Counted from the first letter of the stretch, positions 4,318 to 50,526 are shown. The stretch: 64,000 nt of DNA from Candidatus Latescibacterota bacterium (GCA_020349025.1 CP070763.1:2377673-2441672), one strand, 5' to 3'. Program-made: numbers and translations. The notes: a model not told the origin generated them from the sequence alone.

Positions 4318-5481
4318 ATGAAGGTCGTCGTCTGCGCCGAAGTGCAGTGGCGCTACGTTCGCACCCGCAAGCAGCAGATCCTGTCGCGTCTTCCTGCCGA
4401 CTGGCCGATCCTCTTTCTCCAGGCCTATGTGCGCGGCCGCCCCAACGCCTGGCTACCACGTCGCGACGGCAACCTGACCTACGTCACCGTCCCGGTGCTC
4501 AAGAACGCCCCCAACTCGCTCCTGCGTGCGGTGCTGGCCTGGTGGCCGGTCCGCGCCCTCCTCAACCTGATGCTTCTCAAATGGGTATGGCTCGTGCGGC
4601 TGCTCACCGGGTTCGCGCGCGCTGACGTGATGCTGTACGTCTCAAACATCTACTTCGGTCGCATCCTTCGTTGGCTGCCGCGGCGTGCGGCGGTCTACGA
4701 CTGCAACGACAACCACCTCGCCTTTCCCGGCACGCCCGCGTGGGCGCGTGGCTATTTCGAACGCGTCGTCCATGGAGTCGATGCCGTGGTCGTCAGCCAG
4801 CGCTTGTTGCGAGAGGAGATCGAACCGCTGCGTCGGGACTCGATCGTCGAGATCGGCAATGGCGTCGACTTCGCACTCTTCGATGCCGCGTGGCGGCAGC
4901 CGTCTCGTCCCGCCGACATCTGCAACCTGCCCGGGCCACGCATCGGTTACGCTGGTGCCCTGGCCGCATGGATCGATCTCGATCTCGTCGCGCACATCGC
5001 CGAGGCCATACCGAGGGCGAGCGTCGTTCTCGTGGGCCCAGCCGTCGGCCCGGGCGTCGACCTGGAGGCGCGCTTCCGCTCGCTGGGGAACGTGCACTGG
5101 CTCGGCTCCAAGCCGCACGAGGAGCTCCCGCACTACGTGCGCGAGATGGACGTCTGTCTCATTCCGTTTCGCCCGACGCCACTGACGCGCGGTGTGAACC
5201 CGAACAAACTGTACGAGTACCTGGCGCTCGGGAAACCGGTTGTGAGCACCGATTTCTCCCCCTTCATCCACGACTACGCCCCGCACGTGCAGGTGGGGCG
5301 GACGGCCGAGGAGAGCGTGGCCGCCATCGGCCGCTTTCTCGCCGTGGCCGGCGATCCGGAGCCGCGCCGTGAGATCGCGCGTCAGCACGGCTGGGATCGC
5401 TGCGCCGCGCGCATGCAGGATCTCCTCGAGGCGCTGGTTTCCGGGAGCGACGGTTCCGACGTGCCGCGCCAGTCGCTATAA
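4318..5481 (+). CDS. Family-1 (GT4-type, TuaH-like) glycosyltransferase.
   Basis: ATG 4318 (MKVVVCAE) has GGAGG 5 nt upstream. The ORF track's 4291 start is probably too long. The C-terminal GT-B nucleotide-binding half is recognisable (NKLYEYLALGKPVVSTD, RVxxVGxG-type region). Confidence 0.75.
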   Translation: MKVVVCAEVQWRYVRTRKQQILSRLPADWPILFLQAYVRGRPNAWLPRRDGNLTYVTVPVLKNAPNSLLRAVLAWWPVRALLNLMLLKWVWLVRLLTGFARADVMLYVSNIYFGRILRWLPRRAAVYDCNDNHLAFPGTPAWARGYFERVVHGVDAVVVSQRLLREEIEPLRRDSIVEIGNGVDFALFDAAWRQPSRPADICNLPGPRIGYAGALAAWIDLDLVAHIAEAIPRASVVLVGPAVGPGVDLEARFRSLGNVHWLGSKPHEELPHYVREMDVCLIPFRPTPLTRGVNPNKLYEYLALGKPVVSTDFSPFIHDYAPHVQVGRTAEESVAAIGRFLAVAGDPEPRREIARQHGWDRCAARMQDLLEALVSGSDGSDVPRQSL

Positions 5482-5542
5482 TCGAGGCCTCGCTCGTTTC
5501 GCGATCCACCCCGCGACACGTCGCGGCAGCCGGGAGGTGCAG

Positions 5543-7210
5543 GTGGACAAGACGGCTCGCGCCCTGATCAAGCTCCTGCAGTGCGAGGATCCCAACCTGC
5601 GTCTCGCGGCCATGCGCGTCGTCAGCGCGCTCGGGATGCGCAACAAGTCGGTGATCGCCGCGCTCGGAGCGAACCTGGAGATGGAGCAGGAAGCGTTACG
5701 GATCCAGGCACTGCATGCACTGGCGCAGCTGGGGCCTGCCGACGCGGTGGATCTCGTGGCGCCCATGCTGCTGGAACCGGGTGTCGTGCGCCAGCAGGCG
5801 GCCCGGGTCATGGCGCTGGCGGGCAGCCCCGCCGTCCCCGTGCTGCGGCGCCTGTACGCGCGTGCCGACTTTCATGGCCGCCGCGCCATCGCCTCGACGC
5901 TCGCCGAGATCGGCGGTCGTCCCGCGTTCGACTTTCTCCTGCGCAGCATGCCCCCGGAGGATCTCGAGCTGATCAAACACCTGACCGCGTGTGCACGTGC
6001 GGTGCTCGGTCGCCTGCCGAGCGCTGCGCGCCTCAGCGCGGTGCGAAGCCTGCGCAGCTTCCTCAAGGAGCGCAAGACGCAGAAGAATCCGCACGCGGTG
6101 ATCGCGGGCCTCGTGCTGCTGGGCGGCGTGGCCGATCCGAAGGCGGCCGAGGAAGCGCGCAAGATGCTCCCCGTCTACCTCGACAAGAGGCAGCCGGAAC
6201 CGGTGCGTCGCAATGCCGCGATCTCGATGTCGCGGCTCCCGGTGGCGCCGAAGCAAGCGGATGCGCTGGTGCCCAAGCTCCTGTCCCTGTTGTCGGAGAA
6301 GGAGTGGAGCCCGGTTCCGCAGAACGTCCTGCCGCTCCTGCAACGCCTCGAGCTGTCGCCGCAGGCGTTGCAGAAGCTGCTGCCGCTGCTGCGCAAGTCG
6401 CCGCACGTGGCGGTGCAGCTGCATGTTCTCGAGCGGCTCCACGGCTTGGACAAGCCCGCGGTCGTACGCGAGGTGCTGCCGTTCATCGCGTCGGAGCATC
6501 CGCGTTTGCGGGAGGCGGCGGAAGCCACGCTCAAGACGATGCCATCCGCCATCGGAGCGCTTTTCGAGACGCTGCTGCGGCCGCAGGACGAGGACGTCGG
6601 ACGGCGCGCGCAGTGGATTTTGCGCGCATACCCGGAGGCGGATCGTAAACGCTACGCGGGACGCGCCGCGGATCATGCCGTGAAGCTGTACGAGAAGGGG
6701 GAGCCGCGCGCACGCGTGTTCGTCGATTTCGTCTGCGGTGTCGATCCTGCGCTGCTCCAGAGGCGCGTGGCGACCCGCCTCAAGACGCTCAAGCGCGGCA
6801 GCTCTCGCGGTCGCTGGGAAAGCACGGCGTCGCTTCTACGCCTTCTCTCCGATCGCAACCTCCTGTCGCCGGATCAGCGTTACGACTACGGTGTGGCGCT
6901 TCTGCATCGGAGCCGCAAGGATGTGCGTCGTGAGTCGCGTGCCGCCGATCCTTCGCTGCACGTGCTTGCCGGGGTCGCACGCCAAGATGGTGCCAAGTTG
7001 GTCAAGTCGCTGCTCAAGGAACGCAGCCTCGGCGCCGACGACTACTACTATCTCGGATTCCATCTCAGCGAGGGCAACGAGGAGATGCGCAGCCACGGTC
7101 AGGAACTCCTCGGGCACGTGCTCACACGCTACCCACGCCACAAGCTGCGCCGCGCGGCGAAGCAGAAGCTCGAGCTTCTGGAACGCCACGGCGCTGCGGT
7201 CGAGGCGTGA
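5543..7210 (+). CDS. HEAT-repeat (PBS-lyase-like) protein.
   Basis: Repeated ~30-aa units of the AxRxxAxxALGxLGxxxAVxxL type (LRLAAMRVVSALG, RIQALHALAQLGPADAVDLVAPML, RNAAISMSRLP ...). The start is chosen at GTG 5543 with GGGAGG 5 nt upstream. The ORF-track start 5369 overlaps the upstream gene. Confidence 0.6.
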   Translation: MDKTARALIKLLQCEDPNLRLAAMRVVSALGMRNKSVIAALGANLEMEQEALRIQALHALAQLGPADAVDLVAPMLLEPGVVRQQAARVMALAGSPAVPVLRRLYARADFHGRRAIASTLAEIGGRPAFDFLLRSMPPEDLELIKHLTACARAVLGRLPSAARLSAVRSLRSFLKERKTQKNPHAVIAGLVLLGGVADPKAAEEARKMLPVYLDKRQPEPVRRNAAISMSRLPVAPKQADALVPKLLSLLSEKEWSPVPQNVLPLLQRLELSPQALQKLLPLLRKSPHVAVQLHVLERLHGLDKPAVVREVLPFIASEHPRLREAAEATLKTMPSAIGALFETLLRPQDEDVGRRAQWILRAYPEADRKRYAGRAADHAVKLYEKGEPRARVFVDFVCGVDPALLQRRVATRLKTLKRGSSRGRWESTASLLRLLSDRNLLSPDQRYDYGVALLHRSRKDVRRESRAADPSLHVLAGVARQDGAKLVKSLLKERSLGADDYYYLGFHLSEGNEEMRSHGQELLGHVLTRYPRHKLRRAAKQKLELLERHGAAVEA

Positions 7211-7211: not shown

Positions 7212-8084
7212 GTGACGCTGCACGAGCTTCCACCCGCTCTGCCGCCCGACGAGGTGGAGAAGCTTCGCTGGGAGACCTTCGGTCACAGGCGCACTCGCGC
7301 CATCGCTTCGCGCGATGAGCTCGTGCGTTTCTGTGCACGCCGCGGCTTCGTTCTCCGTGATCCGAGTCCGGGGGTGCACTTCCCGAGCGTCCTGGAGGCC
7401 GCCGTGGGGCGGCCGCTCCTGGGCCATGCCTGGGACGAGCGCGCCGATGATCTCGAGGCCTGGCGCCGCGCGAGCGTCACGTCGCGACAGCTGGTTTGCG
7501 CCGCGGTTCTCGGCGGGCACCCGACGCTGATCGCCCCAGGCTTCCTGGCCGAGTTCCAGGTGTTGTCGGGGAATCGTGGCGACACGAGAGATCATGAGCG
7601 CCTGCGCGAAACGGGCGTTTTGAATCCCGAGGCGAGCGCAGTCTGCTCCTGGCTCCTGTCGGAGGCGCGGCCCATGACAGCCTCCGAGCTCGTCGAGAGG
7701 CTCGGCATGCGCGGAGCGCTGGGAAAGAAGCGTCTCGACGCCGCTCTGCAGGAGGCGGTGCGACATTTCTTGATCGTCGAGAGCAGCTTCGCCGCCGATT
7801 CCGGAGAGCCGCTGTACGATCTTCTTCCACGGGTGCTGACGGCGGCGATGCGGAAGGCGGAGACGATCTCGCTGCAGGTCGCGCGGCAGCGGGTCGTGTG
7901 TCGGTATCTTCGCAACGTCATCGTGGCGGGTTGCCACGAGGTGGCGCGCCTGCTGGGCTGGTCGCAGGAAGAGACGCTGAAGACGATGCGCAGGCTCGAA
8001 GCGAGGCACATGATCGTCGAGCACCCGGCGTCGCGACACAACCGCTGGTTCTTTCAGGCGGCCGCGACAGACTTGCTCGGCTAG
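7212..8084 (+). CDS. Hypothetical protein, possibly a winged-helix DNA-binding domain protein.
   Basis: GTG 7212 lies 1 nt after the HEAT gene's stop, with GAGG upstream. The codon usage is coherent. There is no confident family assignment. Confidence 0.45.
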   Translation: MTLHELPPALPPDEVEKLRWETFGHRRTRAIASRDELVRFCARRGFVLRDPSPGVHFPSVLEAAVGRPLLGHAWDERADDLEAWRRASVTSRQLVCAAVLGGHPTLIAPGFLAEFQVLSGNRGDTRDHERLRETGVLNPEASAVCSWLLSEARPMTASELVERLGMRGALGKKRLDAALQEAVRHFLIVESSFAADSGEPLYDLLPRVLTAAMRKAETISLQVARQRVVCRYLRNVIVAGCHEVARLLGWSQEETLKTMRRLEARHMIVEHPASRHNRWFFQAAATDLLG

Positions 8085-8151
8085 CGCAGCAACGCGCATC
8101 GGCTCGCAAGCCGACGACGGCTCGAGCGCGCAGGGAACGTGAGGTGCCAGG

Positions 8152-8715
8152 ATGAGCGCAACGCGAGCTCCGGAGATTGGCGCCGTTTCGCCGCCGATCG
8201 ATGTCGTCCGCCTGGACGGCCTGCGTGTGACCGACGAGTCGCTGCGGGGTCGCAGCGTCTTGCTTCTCTTCCTGCGTCATCTGCGCTGACTCCCGTGCCG
8301 GGAGCATCTCGGTGAGGTGCGTCGAGTCGTGGAGTTGGAGCACCCCCAGCTGCGCCATGCAGCCCGCTTTCTCGCGCTCTCGTTCGAGCCGGTCGTCGAC
8401 ATCGTGCCGATGCAGCAGGAGCTGCAGGCCGACTTCTTCGAGATCTGCTCCGATCCCGAGCGTCGCACGTACCAGGCGTTCGGATTGCCACGCGTCGATA
8501 CGTTGGCACTCGTGGCACGCCGCACGCTCTTCTTCTACTTGCGGCAGGCGTTGCGTGGTCGCGTGCAACGTGGCGTGGGCAGCGACATCCATCAGATGGG
8601 TGGGGACTTCGTGCTCGACCGCGCCGGCAGCGTCCGCTTCGCGCACGTGAGCAGCGAGCCCGCCGACCGGCCCGAGGCGCGCGCGATGGTGCAGGAGTTG
8701 GCGAGTTGGTCGTAG
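8152..8715 (+). CDS. AhpC/TSA_2 (PRXL2/SelU-like) thiol-disulfide oxidoreductase with an in-frame TGA at codon 46. It is a candidate selenoprotein (UxxC), otherwise a disrupted gene.
   Basis: ATG 8152 opens MSATRAPEIGAVSPPIDVVRLDGLRVTDESLRGRSVLLLFLRHLR, which ends at TGA 8287-8289. The same frame then continues LPCREHLGEV...GGDFVLDRAGSVRFAHV to TAG 8715. The join VLLLFLRHLR-[TGA]-LPCREH aligns to the family redox motif VxxFxRxFGCxxCR. The TGA therefore sits at the first Cys of CxxC. The SelU family is known to have Sec at this position. A stem-loop at 8304-8330 lies downstream. Confidence 0.5.
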
Positions 8716-8968
8716 CCTGGAGGAGGGCGGGCGCGGCACGGTGTCGACGCGGTTGGGGCGGACGTTCCTCCGCGCCCCTCCAGGGCGCTTCGTCACTCGA
8801 CACCCGGCCTGTTTGGACATCCATGTCCTCACGACGGCCGGTGACGCCGCCCCAACCGCGTCGACACCGTGCCGCGCCCGCGTCGACTCTTCGCACGTCG
8901 CCGACCGCACCTTCCGCGATCCCCGCGCACGACACGGCCGGACACGCGCGCGCGTCCGGCCCGTCGTT

Positions 8969-16490: not shown

Positions 16491-16976
16491 TCACGCGTCC
16501 ACCTCGGACTCTGCGCCCGAACCATCATACTCCGCGCTCAGATCTTCCGATTCGTGGATGCGGACGCGCTCCAGCTTGCCCTCGAGGAGCGCTGCGAGCC
16601 GCTCCCACACGAACAGAGCGAGGTTTTCCGACGTGGGCAGCCGGCGCCTGAACCATTCCAGCTCGACGTTGAGGTTGCGGTGATCCAGGGGCTCGAGAAC
16701 TCTCTCCTCGACCATCTGGTCGAGGTCGCGCAGATCGATCAGCATGCCGGTGTCTGGATGTGTCGGCCCGCGAAGCGTGACCTCGACCCGGTAGTTGTGG
16801 CCGTGTCCGTGGCGGTTGGCGCACTTGCCGAAGCGGCGCCGGTTCTCGCTCTCGGAGAGGGCCGGGTCGTAGTAGAAATGCGCCGCCGTGAAGCGGTAGT
16901 GGCGGGTGACGCGGACGAGGGGAAGCTCCAAGAGCGCTCCTTTGGTGTTGGTTCGCGGCGGGCTCCTCCTACCCAC
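16491..16976 (-). CDS. queD: 6-carboxy-5,6,7,8-tetrahydropterin synthase / 6-pyruvoyl-tetrahydropterin synthase family protein.
   Basis: The zinc-site motif CANRHGHGHNY (CxxxHGH) and RFTAAHFY are present. The size fits at ~160 aa. The exact start is uncertain. Confidence 0.7.
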   Translation of the reverse strand: MGRRSPPRTNTKGALLELPLVRVTRHYRFTAAHFYYDPALSESENRRRFGKCANRHGHGHNYRVEVTLRGPTHPDTGMLIDLRDLDQMVEERVLEPLDHRNLNVELEWFRRRLPTSENLALFVWERLAALLEGKLERVRIHESEDLSAEYDGSGAESEVDA

Positions 16977-18759: not shown

Positions 18760-20601
18760 TTGCTGCTTCGAGCGGTCGCTCCAGGAAAACATGAACCGTG
18801 TCGCGGCGGGGTTGAGTTGCGGGAAGGGTCGCAGAGGCGAGCGGGAATCGAGCGGCGCGCGGCCGTGTCTCGAAAGGTGCGCGACGGCGCCCGAGGCGGG
18901 CAGCGCCAGGCGGCGACGGCTCGGCTGCGCAGCGACCAACGGGCGCGCACCCGCAGCCTTCCCCGCATTTGCATCGACAACATCGAGCCCGCGCCCCAGC
19001 GCACCGGATTGAAGCGACTCGTCGGCGACAGCCTGGAAGTCAGCAGCGACATCCTCTGCGACGGCGCCCCCGTTCTCGACGCATGTATCCGCTACAAGGT
19101 GCCCGGCGAGCCACGCTGGCGCTACGCGCCGCTGCGCCCGGCGCAAGAGCCGGAGCGCTGGTGTGGCGTGGTGCGGCTGCAGAGCGGTGGACTGCACCAA
19201 GTGGCCGTCGAAGCGTGGGTCGATCCGTTCGCCACCTGGCAGCGCGACCTGGCGGCGCTCCCCGACGACGATCCGAAGGCGCTCCTCGACGACGGGCGTG
19301 CGCTTCTGGAGCGAGCCGCCGCCCGCACGGCGGGGCTCGATCGCGAGTTCCTGGCGCAGCGGGCGCGCCAGCTCGAAACGGCGGAAGAGCCGCAGCGGAG
19401 CCGCCAGTTGGCACTCGACCCGCAGCTGGGCAAACGCATGCGCGTGCACGGCGACCGGCGCGAGCTGGTGCGCAGCGAGCCGCCGTTGCGCGTGACCGTC
19501 GACCGCAGACGAGCCGGTTTCGCGGCCTGGTGTGCATGCTCGCCCGAGGCGCCGCCCCAGAACGTGCGCATCGCGCTCGAGTCGGAGATCGAAGCGATCG
19601 CGGCAGCGGGGTTCGACGTTCTCTGTCTGCCGCGCGGTGCAACGCGCTCGAGCGCAGGCGGGCTTCCGGACGCGCGCCTCGCGACGCTGGCGCAGCGCGC
19701 GCGCCTTCTGGGTCTCGAGGTCGCTCTGGATCTGGGCACATGCGAGATCACGCCGCCCGCCCGAGCCGCGCAGGAGCCGGAGAGCTGGGCGCTGTGGCTC
19801 GATTCCATGCGCGCGTGGATCGAGCGTGGGATCGCCACCTTCCGGGTTGGCGCACCACACCTCAGGCCCTTTCCCTTCTGGTCGCAACTCCTGGAACGCC
19901 TGAAGAGGGAGCACCCGGAGGCCGTGATCCTCGCCGGGCGCTCACCCGAGAAGCACGCGCGCGCTCTGGCGCGGCTCGGCTTCTCGCAGACGGACCCTGG
20001 AGTGGAATGGAGCGCGGAGGCGCCTGCGCTGCGTCGCCGGCTCGAGCCGCTGTTTGGCGCCGGAAGCGTCGAGAGCATGCGTCCACACCTGCTCCTGGAG
20101 GCGTTCCAATCGACGCCGGGATCGTGCGCCGCCGCAGCAGCACGTGTTCAGCTTCTCCTCGCCGCCACGCTGTCCCCCCTCTACACGTTGCAGGTCGGGG
20201 ACGGGGGCTTCCGTGAGGTCGCAGGCGCGCTCGCGCAGGAAATCCGGCGCGTCAATCGCATGCGGCGCGAGAATCGCGCCCTGCAGCTGTTCACGAACGT
20301 TCGCTTCCTGCGCTCGGAAAACGAGCGCATTCTCTGCTTCTCGAAATCTTCACCGCATCATCGCAACGAGCTCGTGATCGCCGTCAACCTGGACACGCGA
20401 CAGGTGCAGGAAGGCACGGTCGAGGTCCCGCTCGATGCGCTCGGCTTGGGCCGCGAGCAGGAGTACGAGGTCGACGACCTGTGGAGCGGTCGGCGCTTCA
20501 CCTGGCGCGGCGAGCGCAACTTCGTGCGCCTCGATCCGCGACAGCAGCCGGGGCACGTCTTGCGTGTGGTTCGCGAGCGCGAGCTGGGGGTGTGTTTGTG
20601 A
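18760..20601 (+). CDS. GlgE-like (alpha-1,4-glucan:maltose-1-phosphate maltosyltransferase family, GH13_3) protein lacking catalytic residues. It is a probable pseudo-enzyme.
   Basis: The whole length aligns to GlgE (RICIDNIEP, DPFATWQRD, GFDVLCLP, LGLEVALDL, the C-terminal beta domain). GH13 region II reads FRVGAPH instead of FRVDNPH. Region III reads VILAGRSPE instead of VIFLAEAFT. The segment carrying the GH13 region-I-adjacent substrate loop (~30 aa) is missing. The start is uncertain: TTG 18760 or GTG 18865/18877. The stop TGA overlaps the treS GTG (GTGA). Confidence 0.7.
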   Translation: MLLRAVAPGKHEPCRGGVELREGSQRRAGIERRAAVSRKVRDGARGGQRQAATARLRSDQRARTRSLPRICIDNIEPAPQRTGLKRLVGDSLEVSSDILCDGAPVLDACIRYKVPGEPRWRYAPLRPAQEPERWCGVVRLQSGGLHQVAVEAWVDPFATWQRDLAALPDDDPKALLDDGRALLERAAARTAGLDREFLAQRARQLETAEEPQRSRQLALDPQLGKRMRVHGDRRELVRSEPPLRVTVDRRRAGFAAWCACSPEAPPQNVRIALESEIEAIAAAGFDVLCLPRGATRSSAGGLPDARLATLAQRARLLGLEVALDLGTCEITPPARAAQEPESWALWLDSMRAWIERGIATFRVGAPHLRPFPFWSQLLERLKREHPEAVILAGRSPEKHARALARLGFSQTDPGVEWSAEAPALRRRLEPLFGAGSVESMRPHLLLEAFQSTPGSCAAAAARVQLLLAATLSPLYTLQVGDGGFREVAGALAQEIRRVNRMRRENRALQLFTNVRFLRSENERILCFSKSSPHHRNELVIAVNLDTRQVQEGTVEVPLDALGLGREQEYEVDDLWSGRRFTWRGERNFVRLDPRQQPGHVLRVVRERELGVCL

Positions 20602-23600
20602 AGCCGCATTCGTTGTGGCACATGGACGCCATCATCTACGAGATGCACGTCAAGGCGTTCCGCGACAGCAATCGCGACGGCTTCGGCGACTTTCGCGGCC
20701 TCACCGAGAAGCTCGACTACCTCGAGCGGCTCGGGGTCAATTGCATCTGGTTGCTTCCCTTCTACCCCTCGCCACTGCGCGACGACGGCTACGACATCTC
20801 GCTGTACGAGGGGATTCACGAGAACTACGGCTCGTTGCGCGATTTCCGCCGCTTCGTCCGCGAAGCGCACCGTCGCGGGCTGCGTGTGATCACCGAGCTG
20901 GTGCTCAACCACACTTCAGATCAACATCCCTGGTTCCAGGCCGCACGTCGCGCCCAGCCTGGGTCGTCGAAGTGGAACTTCTACGTCTGGAGCGACACGG
21001 GCCAGAAGTACCCCGACGCGCGCGTCATCTTCGTCGATTCTGAGACGTCGAACTGGACCTGGGATCCGGTGGCGAAGTCGTACTTCTGGCATCGCTTCTT
21101 CCACCACCAGCCGGATCTCAACTTCGACAACCCGGCCGTGGTGCGCGCCATCATCAAGGTGATGCGTTTTTGGCTCGACCTGGGCGTCGACGGGCTCCGG
21201 CTTGACGCCGTGCCCTATCTGGTGGAGCGCGAGGGCACGCACTGCGAGAACCTCGAGGAGACGCATGCAATCTTGAAGAGGCTCCGGCATGAGCTCGACG
21301 CGCACTACGAGGACAAGATCTTCCTGGCCGAGGCCAACCAGTGGCCGGCCGACGTGCGACCCTACTTCGGGGCGGGCGACGAATGCCACATCGCCTACCA
21401 CTTCCCCGTGATGCCACGCATGTTCATGGCTCTGCGGCAGGAGGACCGCCATCCGATCGTGGAGATCCTGGCACAGACGCCAGAGATCCCGGACAACTGC
21501 CAGTGGGCTCTGTTCCTGCGCAACCATGACGAGCTGACGCTCGAGATGGTGACCGACGAGGAACGCGACTACATGTACGGCGAGTACGCCAAGGACCCTC
21601 TCATGCGCCTGAACGTCGGCATCCGCCGGCGCCTCATGCCGTTGCTCGATGGCAACCGCAGGCAGTACGAGCTGCTGCACTCCATGTTGATGTCGCTCAA
21701 GGGCACTCCCGTCATCTATTACGGTGACGAGCTGGGGATGGGGGACAACATCTACCTGGGGGACCGCGACGGTGTGCGGACGCCGATGCAGTGGACGGGG
21801 GATCGCAACGCCGGCTTCTCCGAAACGGACGCCGCCCGGCTCTACAGCCCGGTGATTTCCGACCCGGTTTTCGGCTACCAGGCGGTCAACGTCGAGGCGC
21901 AGGAACGTCTGAGCACGTCGCTGCTGTCGTGGATGCAAAGCCTCATTCGGGTGCGCAAACAGAGCAAGGCATTCGGTCGTGGCAGCTTGCGCGTCCTCGA
22001 GCCGGAGAACCGCAAGGTCTTCGTCTACCTGCGCGAGTACCGCGACGAGACCCTGCTCATCGTCAACAACCTGTCGCGCCAGGCGCAAGCGGTCGAGATC
22101 GACCTGCAGGAGTTCGCCGATCGGGTGCCCGTGGAGCTCTTCGGCAACAGCGCTTTTCCCGCCGTCGGCGAGCTTCCCTACCTCCTGACCTTGGGGCCGT
22201 ACGGCTTCTACTGGTTTCGCCTGGCTCGCGCGGGGGAGCGACCGCAGCTACCGCCGCGCATCGTGCCGCGCGTCCAGGAGGACGTGCCGGTGCTGACGCT
22301 GGCGGGTCCACGCTCCGATGCAACCTCGGCTCCGGTGCTCGAAGCGCTGGAGAGCTCCGTGCTCATCCGCTTCCTGCTCGAACAGCCGTGGTTCGACGGC
22401 TCTGTACGAACCCCGCGCTCCGCACGCGTCGTGGAGGTCATCCCGTTGGCAGGGGAATGCGCCGTGTTCGCGCGCCTGGATGTGCGCTTCAGCGACGCGC
22501 TCCACGAGTCGTACCTGGTCGTGTTCATGGCTGCCGAGAACGCACCGGAATCGGCGATCGTCGCCGGCGCCGTGCTGGCGCAGCTGCGCTGTCGGGAGGG
22601 TGATGGGTTTCTCTTCGATGCCGCACACGACGCGCGCTTCCAAGCTCGTCTGCTGGAGATCGTGCGTGCAGAGCCGGAGATTGCGTCGGAGGATGGCGCC
22701 CGGATTCGCATCCGTGTCAGCGCGGGAGGACTCGATCTTCCAGAGCAGGTGGGCGCGCGTCTGCTCGACGACGAGCCCGTCGAGGGCAGCCCACCTCTCG
22801 AGAGCGCCGGCGAGGCGGTTGCGAGCGACGCACGTCGTGCGCCGGAGGCGGCGGGCGCCGGAGTCGTGCCGCAGCGCCTCGGTGCGCACGGCGAGCCGGA
22901 GCAGTCCGAGGTGCCGGAATGGGGTCCCGGCGACGGGACGCCGGTGCTCCCGCGTTTCCGTCGTCGCTCGCAGACGTCGATCGTGTACGGCGAGCGCTTG
23001 CTCCTGAAGCTGTACCGCAGACTGGAGCCGGGATCGCACCCGGAAGTGGAGATGCTGGAGATCCTGGGCAAACGGCCGGCGTTCTCACCGGTGCCGCCCC
23101 TCGTGGCGCGCCTCACTCTGGAGAGCGGGGACGCAACATTCGCGGTGGGCGTGCTGCGACGTTTCGTTCCCGACGTGGCCCCTCTCTGGTCCATGGCACG
23201 GCGCGATCTCGACGAACACCTGCTCACCGAACGCGTGCCGCAGCGGAAGGACGGCTTCGTCGACACGGCGGCGCGTCTTGGCGGCTTGACTCGGCGCCTG
23301 CACGAGACGTTGGCGGAGCGCTTCGCTGCAACGTCGGACGCCGCGCGTCCCGCGAATCGTTCCGATCTCGAGCAATGGGGGCGTCGCGTCCGCCGCCTGG
23401 TCACCCACACCTTGCACGAGCTGAACGCCAGCTGTGACGACGGCGCGCTCCCGGCCAAACTGTACCGCGACGCACGCGCGGTCGTGAACCGGAGCACGAA
23501 GGCGGCCGATCGCGTCGATCATTTGATCTCCAGCTTTGGTGCACAGCTGGGGATCGTCACGCGCGTGCACGGTCGCTATCGACTGCAGGACGTTCTGCGC

Positions 23601-24014
23601 ACACCGGATGGGGGACTGATGGTCGTCGGCTTCGAGGGAGACCCTGCGCTCCTCTTCGGCGAACGCCGACGTTTGGAGAGCCCGCTACGCGACGCGGCCA
23701 GCATGCTGCGTTCGTTCGCCTACGTGGCCACCGAAGCGGTCGGGATGCACGTCGATCCGGCGACACGGCGTCGCGCCGAGGAGCGCGCCGACCAGTGGGA
23801 GCGCAGCGCCAGGACGGCGTTTCTTCGCGGCTACATGGGAGAGCGCCGCGCCGCACCCTCGCCGGTCCTCCCGCCGCGTCGCGACGCTGTCTCAAAGCTC
23901 CTCACCCTCTTCGAGATCGAGGCCCTCTTCCGTGAGCTGCACGATCAGATCGTGCACGACCCGGAGCGCGTCGGTCTGCCCCTCAAGCGAATTCGCACGC
24001 TTCTCGACCTTTGA
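20598..24014 (+). CDS. treS: Trehalose synthase (maltose alpha-D-glucosyltransferase) fused to a C-terminal maltokinase-like (Mak/Pep2) domain.
   Basis: The four GH13 regions are intact: VLNHTS, GLRLDAVPYL, FLAEANQWP and FLRNHDELTLEMV. TreS-specific stretches are present (FHHQPDLN, GDNIYLGDRDGVRTPMQW). The ~540 C-terminal residues have a Mak-like fold. The Mak catalytic loop reads HGRYRLQD (consensus HGDxHxxQ/N) and the DFE motif reads GFEGDP. GTG 20598 (VKPHSLWHMDAIIYE) overlaps the upstream stop. Confidence 0.85.
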   Translation: MKPHSLWHMDAIIYEMHVKAFRDSNRDGFGDFRGLTEKLDYLERLGVNCIWLLPFYPSPLRDDGYDISLYEGIHENYGSLRDFRRFVREAHRRGLRVITELVLNHTSDQHPWFQAARRAQPGSSKWNFYVWSDTGQKYPDARVIFVDSETSNWTWDPVAKSYFWHRFFHHQPDLNFDNPAVVRAIIKVMRFWLDLGVDGLRLDAVPYLVEREGTHCENLEETHAILKRLRHELDAHYEDKIFLAEANQWPADVRPYFGAGDECHIAYHFPVMPRMFMALRQEDRHPIVEILAQTPEIPDNCQWALFLRNHDELTLEMVTDEERDYMYGEYAKDPLMRLNVGIRRRLMPLLDGNRRQYELLHSMLMSLKGTPVIYYGDELGMGDNIYLGDRDGVRTPMQWTGDRNAGFSETDAARLYSPVISDPVFGYQAVNVEAQERLSTSLLSWMQSLIRVRKQSKAFGRGSLRVLEPENRKVFVYLREYRDETLLIVNNLSRQAQAVEIDLQEFADRVPVELFGNSAFPAVGELPYLLTLGPYGFYWFRLARAGERPQLPPRIVPRVQEDVPVLTLAGPRSDATSAPVLEALESSVLIRFLLEQPWFDGSVRTPRSARVVEVIPLAGECAVFARLDVRFSDALHESYLVVFMAAENAPESAIVAGAVLAQLRCREGDGFLFDAAHDARFQARLLEIVRAEPEIASEDGARIRIRVSAGGLDLPEQVGARLLDDEPVEGSPPLESAGEAVASDARRAPEAAGAGVVPQRLGAHGEPEQSEVPEWGPGDGTPVLPRFRRRSQTSIVYGERLLLKLYRRLEPGSHPEVEMLEILGKRPAFSPVPPLVARLTLESGDATFAVGVLRRFVPDVAPLWSMARRDLDEHLLTERVPQRKDGFVDTAARLGGLTRRLHETLAERFAATSDAARPANRSDLEQWGRRVRRLVTHTLHELNASCDDGALPAKLYRDARAVVNRSTKAADRVDHLISSFGAQLGIVTRVHGRYRLQDVLRTPDGGLMVVGFEGDPALLFGERRRLESPLRDAASMLRSFAYVATEAVGMHVDPATRRRAEERADQWERSARTAFLRGYMGERRAAPSPVLPPRRDAVSKLLTLFEIEALFRELHDQIVHDPERVGLPLKRIRTLLDL

Positions 24015-30758: not shown

Positions 30759-30764
30759 TATAAT
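30759..30764 (+). promoter_or_regulatory. Candidate -10 box (TATAAT) for the downstream QueD-family gene.
   Basis: A perfect TATAAT hexamer lies 24 nt upstream of ATG 30788 in a very GC-rich context. GGAGG sits between it and the start codon. Confidence 0.3.
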
Positions 30765-30787
30765 GCGGTCCTCAGGCGGAGGCGTCC

Positions 30788-31189
30788 ATGTACCAGATCA
30801 CGCGCGAGCTCGCATTCTGCTACGGGCATCGGCTTCTGGAGCACGCTGGCAAGTGTGCCCACCTGCACGGACACAATGGCCTGGCTGTCCTGACACTCGG
30901 CTCGGAGCACCTGGACGCGCTCGGGATGGTCGCGGACTTCCAGCTGGTGCGCGATCGATTGGGCGCATGGATCGACGAGCACCTCGATCACCGCATGATC
31001 CTGCGTGAGGACGATCCTGCTCTGCCTGCACTTCTCGAGCTCGGCGAGCCGGTCTACGTCGTCGATTCCAATCCGACGGCGGAGCACTTGGCGCGGCTCC
31101 TCTTCGAGCGCGCGCGCGAGCTCGGGTTGCCTGTTGTGAAGGTGCGCCTTGTCGAAACGCCAACTTGCGCCGCAACGTATCGCCCCTGA
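30788..31189 (+). CDS. 6-pyruvoyl-tetrahydropterin synthase / QueD family protein (second paralogue in the window).
   Basis: CAHLHGHN (CxxxHGH) and FCYGHRLLEH match the PTPS fold. The protein is 133 aa. Confidence 0.75.
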   Translation: MYQITRELAFCYGHRLLEHAGKCAHLHGHNGLAVLTLGSEHLDALGMVADFQLVRDRLGAWIDEHLDHRMILREDDPALPALLELGEPVYVVDSNPTAEHLARLLFERARELGLPVVKVRLVETPTCAATYRP

Positions 31190-33091: not shown

Positions 33092-36000
33092 TCAGTCGCC
33101 CGAGGCAGGAAGGTGACGCCGGCGTCGCAGACGCGACACCGCGGCCACGAGGCCGGAGGGACGGTTGACGTGCACGTGGCCGCTGCGGCTCCAGATGCCG
33201 CGCGCGTAGTCGAGCAGGCGTTCTTCGAGGACGTAGAAGGTGGGGAGCACGATCAGGGTCAAGGCGGTGCCGGACAGGAGTCCGCCGATGAGCGCGCGAG
33301 CCATGGGGTAGTACTGCGCGTCCGACATCGCGGTGTCGCTGAGTGCGAGCGGCAGCAGCCCGAGAACCGTGGTGGCCGCCGTCATCAGGATCGGGCGGAA
33401 GCGCTCGCGCCCCGCTTCGATGATGGCGTCGTGGAGCGGCAAGCCGCGTCTCCTGAAGGTGTTGACGTGGCTGATGAGGACGATGCCGTTGTTGACGATG
33501 ACGCCGATCAGAACGACGACGCCGATCATCGCCATGATGTTCATGGGCGTGTTGGTGAGCGCCATCAGCCAGATGACCCCGAAGATGGCGAACGGCACCG
33601 TGAGCATGATGACGAGTGGGTGCAGGAACGACTCGAACAGCGCGGCCATCACGAAGTAAACGCAGGCGAGCGCGAGCTGGATGTTCAGGAACATTTCGTT
33701 CTGCTCCTGCGCGACGCGCCGGTCCTCGCGGCCGAACGACCAGGCGTACCCCGCCGGCAGCACCATCGTGCTCATCAGCTCCGCCATCTCTTCGCGCGCG
33801 TCGCCGAACTCTTCACCTTCGTACGTGCCCAGGATGCTGATCGACGTGCGCTGCTGCTCGCGGTGGATGTTCGTCGGCGCGTGCTTGAACTGGAAGTCCG
33901 CCACCTGTTCCAGCGTCACGGGGCGGCCATCCTGGATGCCGATCGTCATGACGCGCAGATGCTCGAGGCTCTTGCGATCCTCCGGCGTCAGCAAGATCCC
34001 GATCGGCACCTCCCGGTCGTCCGCTTGCATCTCGCGCAGGTCGACACCACGGAAGGTGAGATTCAGAATGCCGGCGATGCCGTTCGGGTTCACGCCGAAG
34101 CGGCTCGCCTTTTCCCGGTTGACGATGACGTGCACCTCTTCCCGGCCCTGCTCCACGTTCGTGCGCACGTCGTGCACGTCGTGTACGAGAGCCATGCGCC
34201 GCTTCGCTTCGACGGAGAGCTCGGCCAGCATGTCGGAGTCCTCGCCGAAGAGCGACACGCGCAGAGTCTGCGCGCCCATGTTGGGCGCGTCGTCGTCTCC
34301 GAGCATGTAGGTCACACCCGCCTGCTCCGGTAGCTCCTCGCGGAACATGTCGCGCAGGTCACGGATCTCGCGCTCGCGCAGCCGGTGGTCGAAGAACAGC
34401 GTCACCTGGCCGAGGTTGTCCATGAAGAAGCTGTAGACCTCGGCACCGAGCGAGTCGGACTTCGTGAGCAGGTAGTCCTCCACGTTCTTCACGTACTCGT
34501 CCGCTTTGTAGACGTTGACGTTGTCATGGAAGCGCAAACGCACCATCAGTCGATTGGTGCGGAAGCCACGCTCACCGAACGTGTCCATCCCGAACCCGCT
34601 CAGCTTGGTCATGCCGATCGTCGCTGGAATCAGCGCAAGAATCAGCAACAACGTCAGCACCGGGTGCTCCGACGTCGTCCAACGCAACACCCGGATGTAG
34701 CGTGCCTGCAGTGCAGCCACCACGCGCGAAGGCTCGCCCGCTTTGGGCGCACGCAGGCGCGCAGCCATCAGTGGAACGAGCGTGAGCGAGATCAGGAGCG
34801 AGAAGAGGAGCGTCACGGAAAGCGTCAACCCCACCTCGCGCAGCCAGACGACGATCTGGTCTCCGCCCCCCAGGACGATCGGTGCGAAGACGATGACCGA
34901 CGTGAGCGTGGACGCCGTCACCGCGACGCCCACCTCGCGCGCACCCGACTCCGAGGCGGAGTTCCCCCTTTCGCCACGCAGCTGATGGCGGTAGATCGAC
35001 TCCAGGACGACAATGGCGTTGTCGACAAGCATTCCGACCGCCAACATGAGCCCCATCATCGTCAGCAGGTTGAGTGTCTTGCCGCTCAGGTAGAGGAAGA
35101 CACACGTCGCCATGATCGAGAAGGGGATCGCCGTCGCCACGACGATCGTCGTGCGCACGTGGCGCAGGAAGAAGAAGAGCACGAAGACGGCGAGCAGCGA
35201 GCCCACGACCCCCGAAACCAGCAACCCGTTCAGCGACTCCAGAATCTCGTCGGCCTGATCGAAGAAGAGAACGAGGTCGATTCCAGCGAGCGCCGGATCC
35301 TCCGCAGCACGGTCGAGCGCGCGCTGGACCGCACGCGAGACGTCGACGATGTAGGCGCCGGACGCTTTCTGGATCTCGAAGGCAATGGCGGGTTCACCGT
35401 TCAGACGTCTGTACCAGTTCGCATCCGGCTCGCGCTCGACCACGTCGGCGATGTCGGCGAGCACGAGACCCTGTCCGGAGATGCGCAGGTTGGCGATCTC
35501 CTCCGCCGTCTTGTAGGCGCCCACCGTGCGCAGGTTGTAGCGCATCCCCGCGGTGGTCACCTTGCCGACCGAGAGGTTGATGTTGTTGCTGTTGAGCTCG
35601 CGGAAGACGCGGTTGACGTCGATCTGGTGCGCCTTGATCGCATCCATCTTCAAATAGATGGTGACCTCGCGTGGCGCGATCCCATCGATCTGGACGCGCC
35701 CCACGCCCTCGATGCGTTCGAGCGGCTTGATGATCTTGCGTTCCAGGAGCTCGTACGATCCGGCCAAGTCGCGGTTCTTCGCCGAGATGCGCCCCACCAT
35801 GATCGGGATGTCGTTCGAGTTGAAGGTGAACAGGAAGATGTCGCGCACGTCGGAGGGCAGGTCGGCGCGCACCTGGTCGATGCGTTCGCGCACGTCCATG
35901 CGCATGACGTCGACGGGACGGCCGAACTCGAACTCCACCCACACCCAGCACCCCTGGGAGTCGCTGTTCGATCCGATCTCGTGCACGTCGCCGAGGGTGG

Positions 36001-36214
36001 CCAGGACCTCCTCGAGCGGCTTGGCGATCTCGCGCTCCACCTGGGTGGGGAGCGCGTTCGGGTAGGGCACGTTGACGACGATGACCGGAAAATCGACATC
36101 GGGGAGGAAGTTGATCTTCAGGCGCGTGACCGAGATGAAGCCGAGGACGAGGAGCGTCAGCACCATCATCAGCACGGTGACCGGCCGCGTCAGTGCCATG
36201 CGCGTCAGCTTCAC
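33092..36214 (-). CDS. RND (HAE1-family, AcrB/MdtC-like) efflux permease. Second permease of operon 1.
   Basis: 1040 aa with 12 TM segments. Canonical RND N-terminus (MKLTRMALTRPVTVLMMVLTLLVLG) and a conserved VDNAIVVLE motif. GTG start with GGAGGA upstream. Confidence 0.9.
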   Translation of the reverse strand: MKLTRMALTRPVTVLMMVLTLLVLGFISVTRLKINFLPDVDFPVIVVNVPYPNALPTQVEREIAKPLEEVLATLGDVHEIGSNSDSQGCWVWVEFEFGRPVDVMRMDVRERIDQVRADLPSDVRDIFLFTFNSNDIPIMVGRISAKNRDLAGSYELLERKIIKPLERIEGVGRVQIDGIAPREVTIYLKMDAIKAHQIDVNRVFRELNSNNINLSVGKVTTAGMRYNLRTVGAYKTAEEIANLRISGQGLVLADIADVVEREPDANWYRRLNGEPAIAFEIQKASGAYIVDVSRAVQRALDRAAEDPALAGIDLVLFFDQADEILESLNGLLVSGVVGSLLAVFVLFFFLRHVRTTIVVATAIPFSIMATCVFLYLSGKTLNLLTMMGLMLAVGMLVDNAIVVLESIYRHQLRGERGNSASESGAREVGVAVTASTLTSVIVFAPIVLGGGDQIVVWLREVGLTLSVTLLFSLLISLTLVPLMAARLRAPKAGEPSRVVAALQARYIRVLRWTTSEHPVLTLLLILALIPATIGMTKLSGFGMDTFGERGFRTNRLMVRLRFHDNVNVYKADEYVKNVEDYLLTKSDSLGAEVYSFFMDNLGQVTLFFDHRLREREIRDLRDMFREELPEQAGVTYMLGDDDAPNMGAQTLRVSLFGEDSDMLAELSVEAKRRMALVHDVHDVRTNVEQGREEVHVIVNREKASRFGVNPNGIAGILNLTFRGVDLREMQADDREVPIGILLTPEDRKSLEHLRVMTIGIQDGRPVTLEQVADFQFKHAPTNIHREQQRTSISILGTYEGEEFGDAREEMAELMSTMVLPAGYAWSFGREDRRVAQEQNEMFLNIQLALACVYFVMAALFESFLHPLVIMLTVPFAIFGVIWLMALTNTPMNIMAMIGVVVLIGVIVNNGIVLISHVNTFRRRGLPLHDAIIEAGRERFRPILMTAATTVLGLLPLALSDTAMSDAQYYPMARALIGGLLSGTALTLIVLPTFYVLEERLLDYARGIWSRSGHVHVNRPSGLVAAVSRLRRRRHLPASGD

Positions 36215-36236
36215 GTCGCTCCTCCGTTCGGGAAGG

Positions 36237-39200
36237 CTACGGGCGCCGGTCGACGACGGAGTAGAAGACCGGGATGACGACCAGGGTCAACAACGTCGAG
36301 AGCGTCAGGCCGCCAATGACCGCGATCGCCATCGGCGCGCGGATCTCAGCACCTTCGCCGAACCCGAGCGCCATCGGTGTGAGACCCAGCACGGTCGTCA
36401 GCGTGGTCATCAGGATGGGACGCAAGCGCACGCTCGCCCCCTCGCGCAACGCTTCGATCTTGGAGCGGCCGCGCTGCCGCAGCCGGTTCACGTAGTCGAC
36501 GAGAACGATCGAGTTGTTGACCACGATTCCCGACAGCATGATCACGCCGAGGAAGACGACGACACTGACGGTCGTCCCGGTCAGCGCCAACGCCAGAATG
36601 ACGCCGATCAACGCCAGTGGCACAGTCCCGAGAATGACGAACGGATGCAGCAACGACTCGAACTGGCTCGCCATCACGATGTACACCATGAAGACGGCGA
36701 GCAGGACGGCGAGAATCAGGCTGCGGAAGGAGTGCTGCAGCTCCTCGTTCTGCCCGGTGAGCTCCGCCGTCACCGTTCCGGGAAGCGGCGTGGATGCCAG
36801 CACCGCGTCGATGTCGCGCGACACGGAGCCGAGATCGCGGCCCGCCAGGTCGGCGTAGACGAGCGCGGCTCGCTGCTGGTCCAGGTGCTCGATCTGACTC
36901 GGACCGCGCTCGACGGCGATGTCGGCGACCGACGAGAGCATGACCGGGATCCCCTCCGCGTGCGCGACGACGAGGTTGCCCACCTGACCGATGTCGATGC
37001 GGTCGGCGCGCTCGGTGCGGACGAGAATGTCGATCTGGCGGTCACGCTCCTTCAGGCGCGTCGCGGCGTCGCCGCGGATCTTGTTGCGCAGCGTTCTCGA
37101 GATGGCGTCGATGTCGAGGTCCATCGCCGATACGCGCGCGCGATTGAAGGCAATCTGAACCTCGGGACTTCCGGGTTGCAGCGAAGCGCGCACGTCGCGC
37201 AGTCCAGGCACCTGCCGCAGACGCTGGACGAGGACGTCCGTGGCCTCCGCGAGGTCGTCGAGCTCGAAGCCGTACACCTCGATCTCGATCGGCGTGCGGA
37301 AGCTGAAGTAGCTGGGTCGCCGAAATTCGTAATCGAGATCTTCAATCGACTCGAGTTGCCCGCGGATGTCCTCGACCACGCGTTCCTCGACCACATTGTT
37401 GGCTCGCTCCTTCAATACGACGTTGATCTGCGCCAAGCTCGGCTTCTTCGAGTTGACGTCGGCGCCGAGTCGATCGGTGCCCCCGACGTCGACGAAGACG
37501 GTGCGCAAGCGCCGATCGTGGACGAGGTTGCGCTCGACGTTCGAGATGGTGGCGTCGGTGACGGGCAAAGGCGTGCCGTCCGGGAGCTGCGCCTCGAACG
37601 TGAACTCCCCCTGCGTGAACGATGGGATGAGCTCCATGCCGAGCATCGGAACGAGCGCGATGCAGACGGCAAACAGCGCTCCCGTACCCAGAAGGACGGG
37701 CGCGCGGTGCGCCAACGCCCAGTCGAGGAGCGGCGTGTACGCCGTCTGAACACGCGAGAAAGCGGCGTCGAAGATCGGGAAGATCGTGCGACGACAAAGT
37801 GCCATGAAGGAACCGAGCAACACTCCCGACCGGTTCGACTCGTCGAGCTCGTAGAACGGGAAGAGGAAGCGTAGGATCGCGATGAACCCAACGACGAGTG
37901 GGATGATGATGTAACGCCAGATCCCTTTGATGATCGGCGTCAGCAAGCCGTCGAGCACGAGCCAGACGAGCTGACGGATCGGCCACAACAGCAGCCAGAC
38001 GATGCGAACGATCCAGCGCGCAACGAACCACACGAGCCGGAGCGGGAAGAAAACGAGCCGCAGCACGCGCGGCATCGGAACCACGGCCTCACCGTTCTGG
38101 ACAGCGTAGGCCTTGAGCGAATCGACTCCGTTCTGCGCCGCGCTCTCGTCCGGCTGCACGCTCGCCAAGCGCCACCAGTAGCCGGGGCGCAGCGCCGAGA
38201 CCATGGGAATCAGGGTGAGAGCGACGATGAGCGAGACGATGAGGGAGAAGGTGACCGTCAACGCCTGATCCTTGAAGATCTGGCCCGCGACGCCCTCGAC
38301 GAAGACGATCGGCAAGAAGACCGCGACCGTCGTGAGCGTCGAAGCGACGACGGCGCGCCCCACCTCGTTGGCACCGCGCTCGGCGCTCTCCGGCGCGTTG
38401 TCCTCCCCCTTGCGATGGCGGGCGATCGCTTCCAGCACGACGATCGAGTTGTCGACCAGCATGCCCACACCGAGGGCGAGACCCCCCAGCGACATGATGT
38501 TGAGCGTCACGTTCATCTGTCGCATCAAGACGAACGTCGCGACGATCGAGACGGGAATCGACATCGCGATGATCATCGTGGAGCGCGGATCCTTGAGGAA
38601 GAGGAAGAGGATCAGGACCGCGAGGATTCCACCGATGATGGCGTTCGAGCGTACCTCGTTGATCGAGTTCTCGATGAAGACCGACTGATCGAAGAGGATG
38701 GTCGTCTCGACGCCCGGCGGCAGCCTTTGCTGCAGCCAGTCGAGTCGGTCGCGAACACGCTGCGCCACCCGCACCGTGTTGCTGTCCCCCTCCTTGTAGA
38801 TGGAGACCTGCACGCACTCCCGTCCGTTCACGCGCGAGATGATCTCGCGCTCCTGCCAGCCGCGATCGACGCGCGCCACGTCGCCGAGCGTGACCCGACG
38901 ACCTTCCTCGTCGAGCAGGATGACGCGCTGGATGTCGTCGACGTCGGCGAGCTCGTTGAGCGTGCGCACGAGGAACTCGGCATCGCGGTCGCGTAGACGT
39001 CCACCGGAAGCGTTGATGTTGTTCTGGCTCACCACCCGGGTGACGTCCGTGATCGACACGCCGAGGAGCGCCATCTTGCCCTCGTCGAGGTCGACGTGGA
39101 TCTCTTCGACCAAGCCGCCCTGGACGCGCGCTGAGGCGACTCCATCGAGAGCCTCCAGGTCTTTCTTCAGCGTCCGATCCACCCAGTGACGCAGAGCGAT

Positions 39201-39641
39201 CATGTTGGAGTCACCGTGAGCCGCCACGCGCAGAACCGGATCGAGCGTAGGGTCGAAACGCAACAGGATTGGAGGGCTCGCATCGTCGGGCAGGCGCACC
39301 AGGTCGATCTTTTCGCGCACGTCGAGGCTGGCGTAGTCCATCTCGGTATCCCAGGCGAACTCGAGAACGATCTGGGACATCCCCGACTGCGACACCGAGT
39401 GCATCTTGCGCAATCCCTGCACTACCGCAACCGCCTCCTCCAGCGGTTCGGTGATGAAGGCTTCCACCTCGGCCGGTGCCGCGTCGGCGTACTCGGTCTG
39501 GATCGTGAGCGTCGGGTAGGAGATTTCCGGCAGCAGATTCACCGAGAGGCGCCCGAGCGAGACGAATCCGAAGAGCACCACGGCGATGGTGGCCATGGAA
39601 ACCGTCACCGGATGGCGGATGGAGAAGCGGATGATGCCCAT
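36237..39641 (-). CDS. RND efflux permease (MdtB-like). First permease of operon 1, with a ~100-aa Trp-rich insertion.
   Basis: 1134 aa. RND N-terminus (MGIIRFSIRHPVTVSMATIAVVLFG) and the LVDNSIVVLE motif. An extra hydrophobic, W-rich segment lies at aa ~495-600, between TM6 and TM7. This segment is absent from the paralogue. Confidence 0.9.
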   Translation of the reverse strand: MGIIRFSIRHPVTVSMATIAVVLFGFVSLGRLSVNLLPEISYPTLTIQTEYADAAPAEVEAFITEPLEEAVAVVQGLRKMHSVSQSGMSQIVLEFAWDTEMDYASLDVREKIDLVRLPDDASPPILLRFDPTLDPVLRVAAHGDSNMIALRHWVDRTLKKDLEALDGVASARVQGGLVEEIHVDLDEGKMALLGVSITDVTRVVSQNNINASGGRLRDRDAEFLVRTLNELADVDDIQRVILLDEEGRRVTLGDVARVDRGWQEREIISRVNGRECVQVSIYKEGDSNTVRVAQRVRDRLDWLQQRLPPGVETTILFDQSVFIENSINEVRSNAIIGGILAVLILFLFLKDPRSTMIIAMSIPVSIVATFVLMRQMNVTLNIMSLGGLALGVGMLVDNSIVVLEAIARHRKGEDNAPESAERGANEVGRAVVASTLTTVAVFLPIVFVEGVAGQIFKDQALTVTFSLIVSLIVALTLIPMVSALRPGYWWRLASVQPDESAAQNGVDSLKAYAVQNGEAVVPMPRVLRLVFFPLRLVWFVARWIVRIVWLLLWPIRQLVWLVLDGLLTPIIKGIWRYIIIPLVVGFIAILRFLFPFYELDESNRSGVLLGSFMALCRRTIFPIFDAAFSRVQTAYTPLLDWALAHRAPVLLGTGALFAVCIALVPMLGMELIPSFTQGEFTFEAQLPDGTPLPVTDATISNVERNLVHDRRLRTVFVDVGGTDRLGADVNSKKPSLAQINVVLKERANNVVEERVVEDIRGQLESIEDLDYEFRRPSYFSFRTPIEIEVYGFELDDLAEATDVLVQRLRQVPGLRDVRASLQPGSPEVQIAFNRARVSAMDLDIDAISRTLRNKIRGDAATRLKERDRQIDILVRTERADRIDIGQVGNLVVAHAEGIPVMLSSVADIAVERGPSQIEHLDQQRAALVYADLAGRDLGSVSRDIDAVLASTPLPGTVTAELTGQNEELQHSFRSLILAVLLAVFMVYIVMASQFESLLHPFVILGTVPLALIGVILALALTGTTVSVVVFLGVIMLSGIVVNNSIVLVDYVNRLRQRGRSKIEALREGASVRLRPILMTTLTTVLGLTPMALGFGEGAEIRAPMAIAVIGGLTLSTLLTLVVIPVFYSVVDRRP

Positions 39642-39644
39642 GGG

Positions 39645-40991: not shown

Positions 40992-41352
40992 CGGGCTCGC
41001 AGCCTACGGGTTTCGGTGGATTCGTCTCCCCGCTGAGCACTACGCAGTCGACCGGTGCGAGGTTCGCCCTATTTCCGCCGGTCTGGAACGGAGGGGGGCC
41101 GCGGGGCTGCGTTCGGCGCCCGATCCGCTTGGGATCGAGCGGGCACCCGCATGCCGGCGAGCCCGGGACCTCGCTGCGGAGGGGTAAGGGGCGTTCCAGG
41201 TCGCGACGGGTGTTCACGCTTCCACAGCTTCAACGGGCCCAGGGGGTGGGAGTGTTACGTCGCCAGCGGCGTGACGTGGCGCTACACTCTGCGAACCCCA
41301 CGCACGGCATCCGTGCCGATCCGCCGCTTCCGTTCTGCAGGAGGGAGGGGAT

Positions 41353-50514: not shown

Positions 50515-50526
50515 GCGTCCTCCCAC

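Follow-up and report, generated by a model that had tools for sequence, protein, structure and literature searches.

The window (the whole stretch of DNA that was analysed, 64,000 nucleotides from a Candidatus Latescibacterota bacterium) carries on its plus strand, between positions 8152 and 8715, a single reading frame of 187 sense positions that begins with an ATG at 8152, ends with a TAG at 8713-8715 and contains a sole internal stop, a TGA at 8287-8289. Direct translation agreed with the original prediction in both the frame and the peptide around the stop, for which VLLLFLRHLR-[TGA]-LPCREHL had been given; the residues VLLLFLRHLR precede the TGA, LPCREHLGEV follow it, and neither further stops nor frameshifts were found in 8152-8715. 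We propose that this TGA (8287-8289, +) is a selenocysteine (Sec) codon specifying U46 of a U-L-P-C motif, and that the frame 8152-8715 (+) is the coding sequence of a SelL-related redox selenoprotein of 187 residues including Sec46, as suggested by the single frame, a match to the NCBIfam model NF040769 and orthologues whose similarity extends over its entire length. The TGC at 8296-8298 (+) encodes Cys49, which closes the UxxC motif and would be its resolving residue; this Cys is invariant across the relatives. A putative Shine-Dalgarno-like sequence, GAGG, can be read at 8141-8144 (+), 7 nt 5' of the ATG. In GenBank, the locus is represented by an ORF at 8329-8715 (+) whose product is a 128-aa 'hypothetical protein' (UCE01586.1 / JSW67_09880). 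Since this protein (P0155 in our searches) is identical to the product of 8329-8712 only, with the GTG start read as Met, the gene is mis-annotated in its own record.

Upstream of the frame lie a HEAT-repeat gene (5369-7210, +) and a gene for an AlkZ-related protein recognised by Pfam (7212-8084, +). The order HEAT-repeat gene, AlkZ-related gene, selenoprotein gene was conserved in one of the two main clades of relatives, clade A (L001-L008, L009, L011, L012 and L014, the last from Krumholzibacteriia), and murJ was located convergently on the 3' side of the selenoprotein gene in the window and in L001-L006. No conserved gene neighbourhood was found for the other clade, clade B. In the window, the convergent intergenic region between the selenoprotein gene and murJ contains a perfect 35-nt inverted repeat (GCGGGCGCGGCACGGTGTCGACGCGGTTGGGGCGG) at 8727-8761 and 8847-8881, separated by an 85-nt spacer and occurring nowhere else in the window, which may act as a terminator in both directions or represent a small palindromic element.

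Two other same-frame TGA junctions in the window were discarded. The one at 31187-31189, considered as a second Sec codon, is simply the stop with which a complete QueD/PTPS gene (30764-31189) ends, and the one at 50527 separates two AcrB genes. A second PTPS paralogue is present at 16494-16976 (-). Two RND efflux clusters (33092-41003 and 47416-54800) together encode four AcrB-type transporters and two HlyD-type adaptors, and a di-haem cytochrome c peroxidase gene (42476-43531) is located between them. A GlgE-like maltosyltransferase gene occupies 18760-20601; the long ORF after it (20217-24014), which overlaps it out of frame, encodes alpha-amylase/TreS and maltokinase N-cap domains, and the region 18760-24014 looks like a GlgE alpha-glucan pathway cluster.

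When the joined protein with U replaced by C was used as the query in a word-indexed search, only five relatives were found, all of them short proteins of 126-152 aa that matched no more than the C-terminal two thirds of the query. Protein representatives were searched with the C-terminal part of the window protein. On the contigs of the relatives, an ORF of 45-50 codons, a stop and the called gene followed one another in the same frame. Comparison of the orthologues for TGC or TGT versus TGA at this codon showed TGA at the identical alignment column in 17 out of 17 distinct sequences (the window, L001, L009, L011, L012, L014, L016, L017-L023, L025, L026 and L027), down to 30% protein identity, and TGC, TGT, TAA and TAG in none of the 17. 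The TGA column was thus kept in the Krumholzibacteriia metagenome-assembled genome (MAG) represented by L014, in three additional loci and in nine metagenomic loci that include clade B, whose members are 30-37% identical, have a lower GC content and carry the motif FHRHLG-U-LPCREHLSQLRQ. JGI, ENA, Logan and NCBI each contributed independent assemblies with this TGA.

The codons preceding the TGA were conserved as protein. Between the window and L001, the 27 codons 5' of the TGA differed by five synonymous and no non-synonymous changes, and the pN/pS of these codons was ca. 0.15-0.55 in 11 other pairs. The pN/pS was below 1 on both sides of the UGA, indicating that the frame is conserved as protein upstream and downstream. 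Purifying selection on the 27 upstream codons means that they are neither an untranslated leader nor a 5' half in decay. The comparative signal, consisting of the fixed TGA column and the two-sided protein conservation, is, as judged from these alignments, far beyond what chance would be expected to give.

Known Sec/Cys pairs occur at redox-active Cys columns. Full-length Cys homologues of the window protein have RHL[AG]-C-[LI][PL]-C-[RQ]EH at the aligned site, and one of these Cys forms, P0035, shares 41% identity with the window protein in an alignment running across the motif. Because the homologues carry C-xx-C at this site, the TGA stands where a CxxC motif has its first Cys. The second position of the motif is a Cys codon in every relative, giving UxxC, which is what had been anticipated when the stop was first noticed. 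An exhaustive profile search of 1.84 billion representatives gave 1355 matches, and the best 150 of these (representatives at 50% identity) were classified. Among the best 150 of the 1355, the ca. 50 N-terminal residues that lead up to the motif are exactly what is missing in at least 119, in which QxGGD lies ca. 88-92 residues from the start versus ca. 140 in full-length proteins; nine are full-length CxxC forms and two are SxxC forms. Since at least 119 of the best 150 representatives are truncated exactly up to the motif, recoding appears to be the rule in the SelL-related family. Three proteins of ca. 470 aa (P0018, P0036 and P0094) consist of an N-truncated SelL-related domain fused to a C-terminal membrane domain bearing the CDP-alcohol phosphatidyltransferase motif DGxxAR...D...D, a hint that in some lineages the family may be connected with phospholipid metabolism.

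The window protein (U replaced by C) passed the NCBIfam model NF040769, 'SelL-related redox protein', with 131.1 bits against a cut-off of 120 (E = 3.1e-38), and the alignment was near full-length, with residues 16-182 on profile positions 6-172 of 173. A clade B member scored 182 bits against the same model. The original prediction had placed the protein in the SelU/PRXL2 family, and this part stood only as a distant relationship. Pfam PF13911 (AhpC-TSA_2) was indeed passed, at 30.1 bits versus 27, as was AhpC-TSA (PF00578), at 26.8 versus 26 bits. Both margins were narrow, and the PF13911 match covered residues 71-166, leaving the redox motif outside. The only solved structure that aligned over the full length was that of PRXL2B (PDB 9us9), in which LRRFG-C-VVC-R is matched by LRHLR-C-LPC-R of the window protein, and this alignment was weak (E = 0.044). 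An assignment to the SelU/PRXL2 family proper, as a bacterial member, instead of to the SelL-related one is favoured by the passed AhpC-TSA_2 threshold and by the position of the CxxC of PRXL2B on the motif, but both matches are marginal, whereas NF040769 is the specific curated model and was clearly passed; we consider this assignment unlikely. On the profile scores, the resemblance to SelU/PRXL2 is taken to be real but distant and the specific curated family to be the SelL-related one. The further claim of a 'new UxxC member of the SelU family' was overstated because NCBI already names and curates the family.

SelL is reportedly found in fish, invertebrates and marine bacteria and is said to contain two Sec residues in a UxxU motif that form a diselenide, as described by Shchedrina et al. 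in PNAS in 2007; in the bacterial members, the SECIS element reportedly lies inside the coding region. The window protein resembles SelL in its Prx-like thioredoxin fold and in the location of the proposed Sec in a motif corresponding to CxxC, and its candidate SECIS would lie within the coding region, as in the bacterial members. In contrast to SelL, with its UxxU and two Sec residues, all 17 sequences examined here have UxxC. Since the second position is an invariant Cys and SelL is UxxU, the window protein is not SelL proper. The two UGA codons of SelL lie two codons apart (PMC4989117), and SelL, 'a Prx-like protein', has been counted among the families common to prokaryotes and eukaryotes (PMC2398784).

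The SelU/PRXL2A-C proteins (AhpC-TSA_2, CDD PRX_like2; PRXL2B is prostamide/PGF synthase) share with the window protein the motif shape R-x-x-G/R-[C/U]-x-x-C-R and its location in the fold, and differ from it in that the similarity is marginal, as the E value for PRXL2B indicates. The known Sec-containing SelU proteins are eukaryotic and have their SECIS in the 3'-UTR. Among bacterial proteins, reviews of 2022 and 2026 list an AhpC/TSA family selenoprotein (PF13911/cd02970) with UxxS, a Prx-like thiol:disulfide oxidoreductase (PF00578) with UxxC/UxxU and a Redoxin (PF08534) with UxxC, all of which were predicted by Sec/Cys pairing together with bSECIS (PMC9312934, PMC13188914). These thioredoxin-fold selenoproteins belong to the same superfamily as the window protein and follow the same logic of Sec in place of the first Cys. 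The reviewed PF13911 family has UxxS as opposed to the UxxC of the window protein, and the PF00578 and PF08534 UxxC families were compared with it by description only. In the published tables, UxxC thioredoxin-fold proteins are frequent among the predicted bacterial selenoproteins (PMC9312934, PMC13188914), and the main text of the 2026 review, including its Table 1, mentions neither 'SelL' nor NF040769 (PMC13188914).

The name 'SelL-related redox protein' is applied by NCBI to Cys forms (e.g. P0202) and also to truncated calls, from Planctomycetota, Phycisphaerae and Pirellulales MAGs. The window copy, which passes the curated cut-off over its full length, comes from Latescibacterota and is unnamed in its own GenBank record. 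Two of the family-named NCBI entries, P0207 and P0215, are TGA forms which begin with MPCREHL, directly past U-L. In three entries (P0204, P0233 and P0279), W is printed at the Sec column. For P0204, the one W entry whose DNA was checked, the codon is a TGA (L025, 376-378) that had been translated with a table in which TGA is Trp.

The region 3' of the UGA was then evaluated against the published bSECIS model, which specifies a loop of 3-9 nt with G in its first two positions, an upper stem of 4-16 bp, a UGA-to-loop distance of 16-37 nt and a free energy of at most -7.5 kcal/mol (PMC13188914). The best candidate, hairpin 1 (8304-8320, +; GCAUCUC-GGU-GAGGUGC), agrees with every element of this model: its 7-bp stem closes a GGU loop that starts 21 nt past the UGA, and its free energy is -8.9 kcal/mol alone and -11.0 kcal/mol with three more pairs (8299-8324). 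Of 14 relatives, 10 have, at a fixed place, a hairpin conforming to the model. Clade A members show a GGY or GGGCG loop 20-21 nt past the UGA, and in this clade 93.9% of the cells of hairpin 1 were paired versus 31-61% in slid controls; across both clades, the value was 83.7%, with one C-G/G-C swap between the clades. The clade B hairpin, CUGUCGC-AGUU-GCGRCAG, has its loop at 25 nt and 91.4% of its cells paired, with one compensatory change from C-G to U-A (L027). An alternative, hairpin 2 (8308-8326, +; CUCGGUG-AGGUG-CGUCGAG), occupies the position of the clade B hairpin and is mutually exclusive with hairpin 1; its free energy in the window is -4.8 kcal/mol, and 63% of its cells were paired across all sequences.

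The evidence for hairpin 1 is nevertheless modest because 27% of the ordinary sense codons in the window pass the same model (15% at -11 kcal/mol or lower). RNAfold with dinucleotide shuffles showed no excess stability of the local fold after the UGA (z = -0.08), and these two values mean that the hairpins alone are not beyond chance. Covariation was not significant against shuffle controls within clade A or within clade B, and nothing relevant was found with Rfam in the whole window at gathering thresholds or in 8200-8420 at permissive E-values. The stems overlap strongly conserved codons (EHLGEV / EHLSQLRQ), so that the conservation of the hairpins may be driven by the protein. Judged from the sequence comparison, hairpin 8304-8320 is a plausible SECIS element. 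Two other hairpins had been pointed out originally. CUCCCG-UGC-CGGGAG, directly after the UGA, does exist (8290-8304, 6 bp, -9.2 kcal/mol) but was rejected as a SECIS since its loop lies 6 nt from the UGA, outside 16-37 nt; it is also poorly conserved, with 66.7% of cells paired versus 50-60% in slid controls. In the 9-bp hairpin at 8304-8330, seven of the nine pairs form and the loop lies 23 nt past the UGA, but the structure is weak (-4.6 kcal/mol); it is a variant related to the clade B type, and the conserved candidate at 8304-8320 is a different, overlapping hairpin.

Genes for the Sec machinery were sought around the family. None of selA, selB, selD and tRNA-Sec was found within the 64-kb window: Pfam searches of ca. 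38 window ORFs, including those in annotation gaps, gave no SelA, SelB or SelD, and ARAGORN found no tRNA-Sec in the window or in 16 relative loci. No Sec machinery was found in the examined relative loci carrying the TGA form, nor, on two long contigs, within 10 kb on either side of the SelL-related members. A physical link between the SelL-related family and sel genes was seen only in L024 (1-2585; ENA ERZ23498372 scaffold_47470), where the 3' end of selA is followed by an ORF that joins a SelB-like GTPase N-terminus of ca. 97 residues in frame to a Cys-form SelL-related domain, and then by a CDP-alcohol phosphatidyltransferase gene. This fusion reflects either a deletion in the genome or a chimeric assembly. 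As for the lineage, which had been described as poorly documented for selenoproteins, this description holds as far as we have checked, and no report linking Latescibacterota or Krumholzibacteriota with selenoproteins was found among the papers searched.

In the AlphaFold model of the Cys homologue P0035 (pLDDT 82.1), the CxxC lies between a strand (31-36) and a helix (43-54), which, as modelled, would be the classical active-site position of the thioredoxin fold. A Foldseek search with this model retrieved Bcp/AhpE peroxiredoxins and ResA (TMq 0.62-0.76). The peroxiredoxin signature PxxxT/SxxC is not present in the window protein, in which the corresponding stretch reads L39-F-L-R-H43-L-R-U46, with Leu at -7 and His at -3. 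Since PxxxTxxC is absent, we infer an oxidoreductase chemistry of the CxxC type rather than a peroxidase, and a reaction of the disulfide-reductase type or one like that of the PRXL2 reductases seems more likely than classical peroxidase chemistry.

We consider it very probable, on the strength of the comparative sequence data, that the UGA at 8287-8289 is decoded as Sec in a SelL-related redox protein, and from the same data we infer that Sec is actually inserted. The core of the original prediction, namely a selenoprotein of thioredoxin/Prx-like fold with Sec at the first Cys of CxxC, has been borne out by the conserved TGA, the Sec/Cys pairing and the purifying selection. Every gene caller as well as the GenBank record treats the locus as two products instead, a 45-aa peptide that stops at the TGA and a downstream ORF (128 aa, from the GTG at 8329) that alone would be functional, and the failure to see Sec machinery in the window is in line with such an arrangement. 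However, the downstream ORF is devoid of strands beta1-beta3 and of the whole redox motif, purifying selection acts in the same frame on the 27 upstream codons, which are homologous to the N-terminus of the full-length Cys forms, and the junction is exactly TGA at the Cys column in all 17 sequences, which makes this explanation very improbable.

Readthrough of the UGA without Sec, whether by near-cognate or suppressor insertion of Trp, Cys or Arg or through reassignment of the code, could draw on the database entries that show W at the Sec column; but the sole W entry checked (P0204) proved to be a TGA under the wrong code table, and a Trp at the redox-active Cys column would destroy the motif. 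TGA is, moreover, the commonest terminator in the window, ending 20 of the 32 predicted genes at a GC content of 66.6%, so that the genetic code has not been reassigned. As the name chosen by the NCBI curators also ties the family to selenoprotein L, we give this reading just as little credence as that of two products. A pseudogene, or a sequencing or assembly error turning TGC or TGT into TGA, needs only a one-base change, and the source is a MAG. This explanation is effectively refuted by the occurrence of the same TGA in the JGI, ENA, Logan and NCBI assemblies and in 17 distinct sequences down to 30% identity, by the lack of other stops and frameshifts and by the purifying selection on both sides.

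Returning to the decoding of the UGA as Sec, it is hypothesised that the gene works as described below. A stem-loop in the coding sequence just 3' of the UGA, for which 8304-8320 is the best candidate, would recruit SelB.GTP.Sec-tRNA(Sec), and this recruitment would let the ribosome read through the UGA into the remaining 141 codons. The product would be a cytoplasmic thiol/selenol oxidoreductase of 187 residues with a thioredoxin fold and the active site R-H-L-R-U46-L-P-C49-R-E-H. Sec46, at the strand-to-helix junction and in the place of the attacking Cys of CxxC, would act as the nucleophile, and Cys49 would resolve the intermediate as a selenenylsulfide.

The gene is an unannotated member of an already curated family and represents neither a new mechanism nor a new family; no new mechanism is revealed, and the UxxC thioredoxin-fold kind is already frequent among predictions. 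What can be put forward jointly, with a confidence that stays a little below an even chance, is the first evidence for the decoding of UGA as Sec in Latescibacterota and Krumholzibacteriota, together with the proposals that the SelL-related family consists overwhelmingly of selenoproteins (at least 119 of the best 150 representatives being truncated at the motif), that public calls split the gene or give Trp, family-named entries included, and that the SECIS hairpins apparently differ between the two main clades (21 and 25 nt after the UGA). UCE01586.1 / JSW67_09880 should be corrected to a 187-residue selenoprotein from a 128-residue hypothetical protein, and the same annotation error runs through most public entries of the SelL-related family. 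Set beside the UxxU of SelL, the UxxC of this family would be useful for comparing selenenylsulfide with diselenide motifs. If the Sec reading is true, a trait for which we found no report in these lineages, the decoding of Sec, would be carried by both a Latescibacterota genome and a Krumholzibacteriia MAG.
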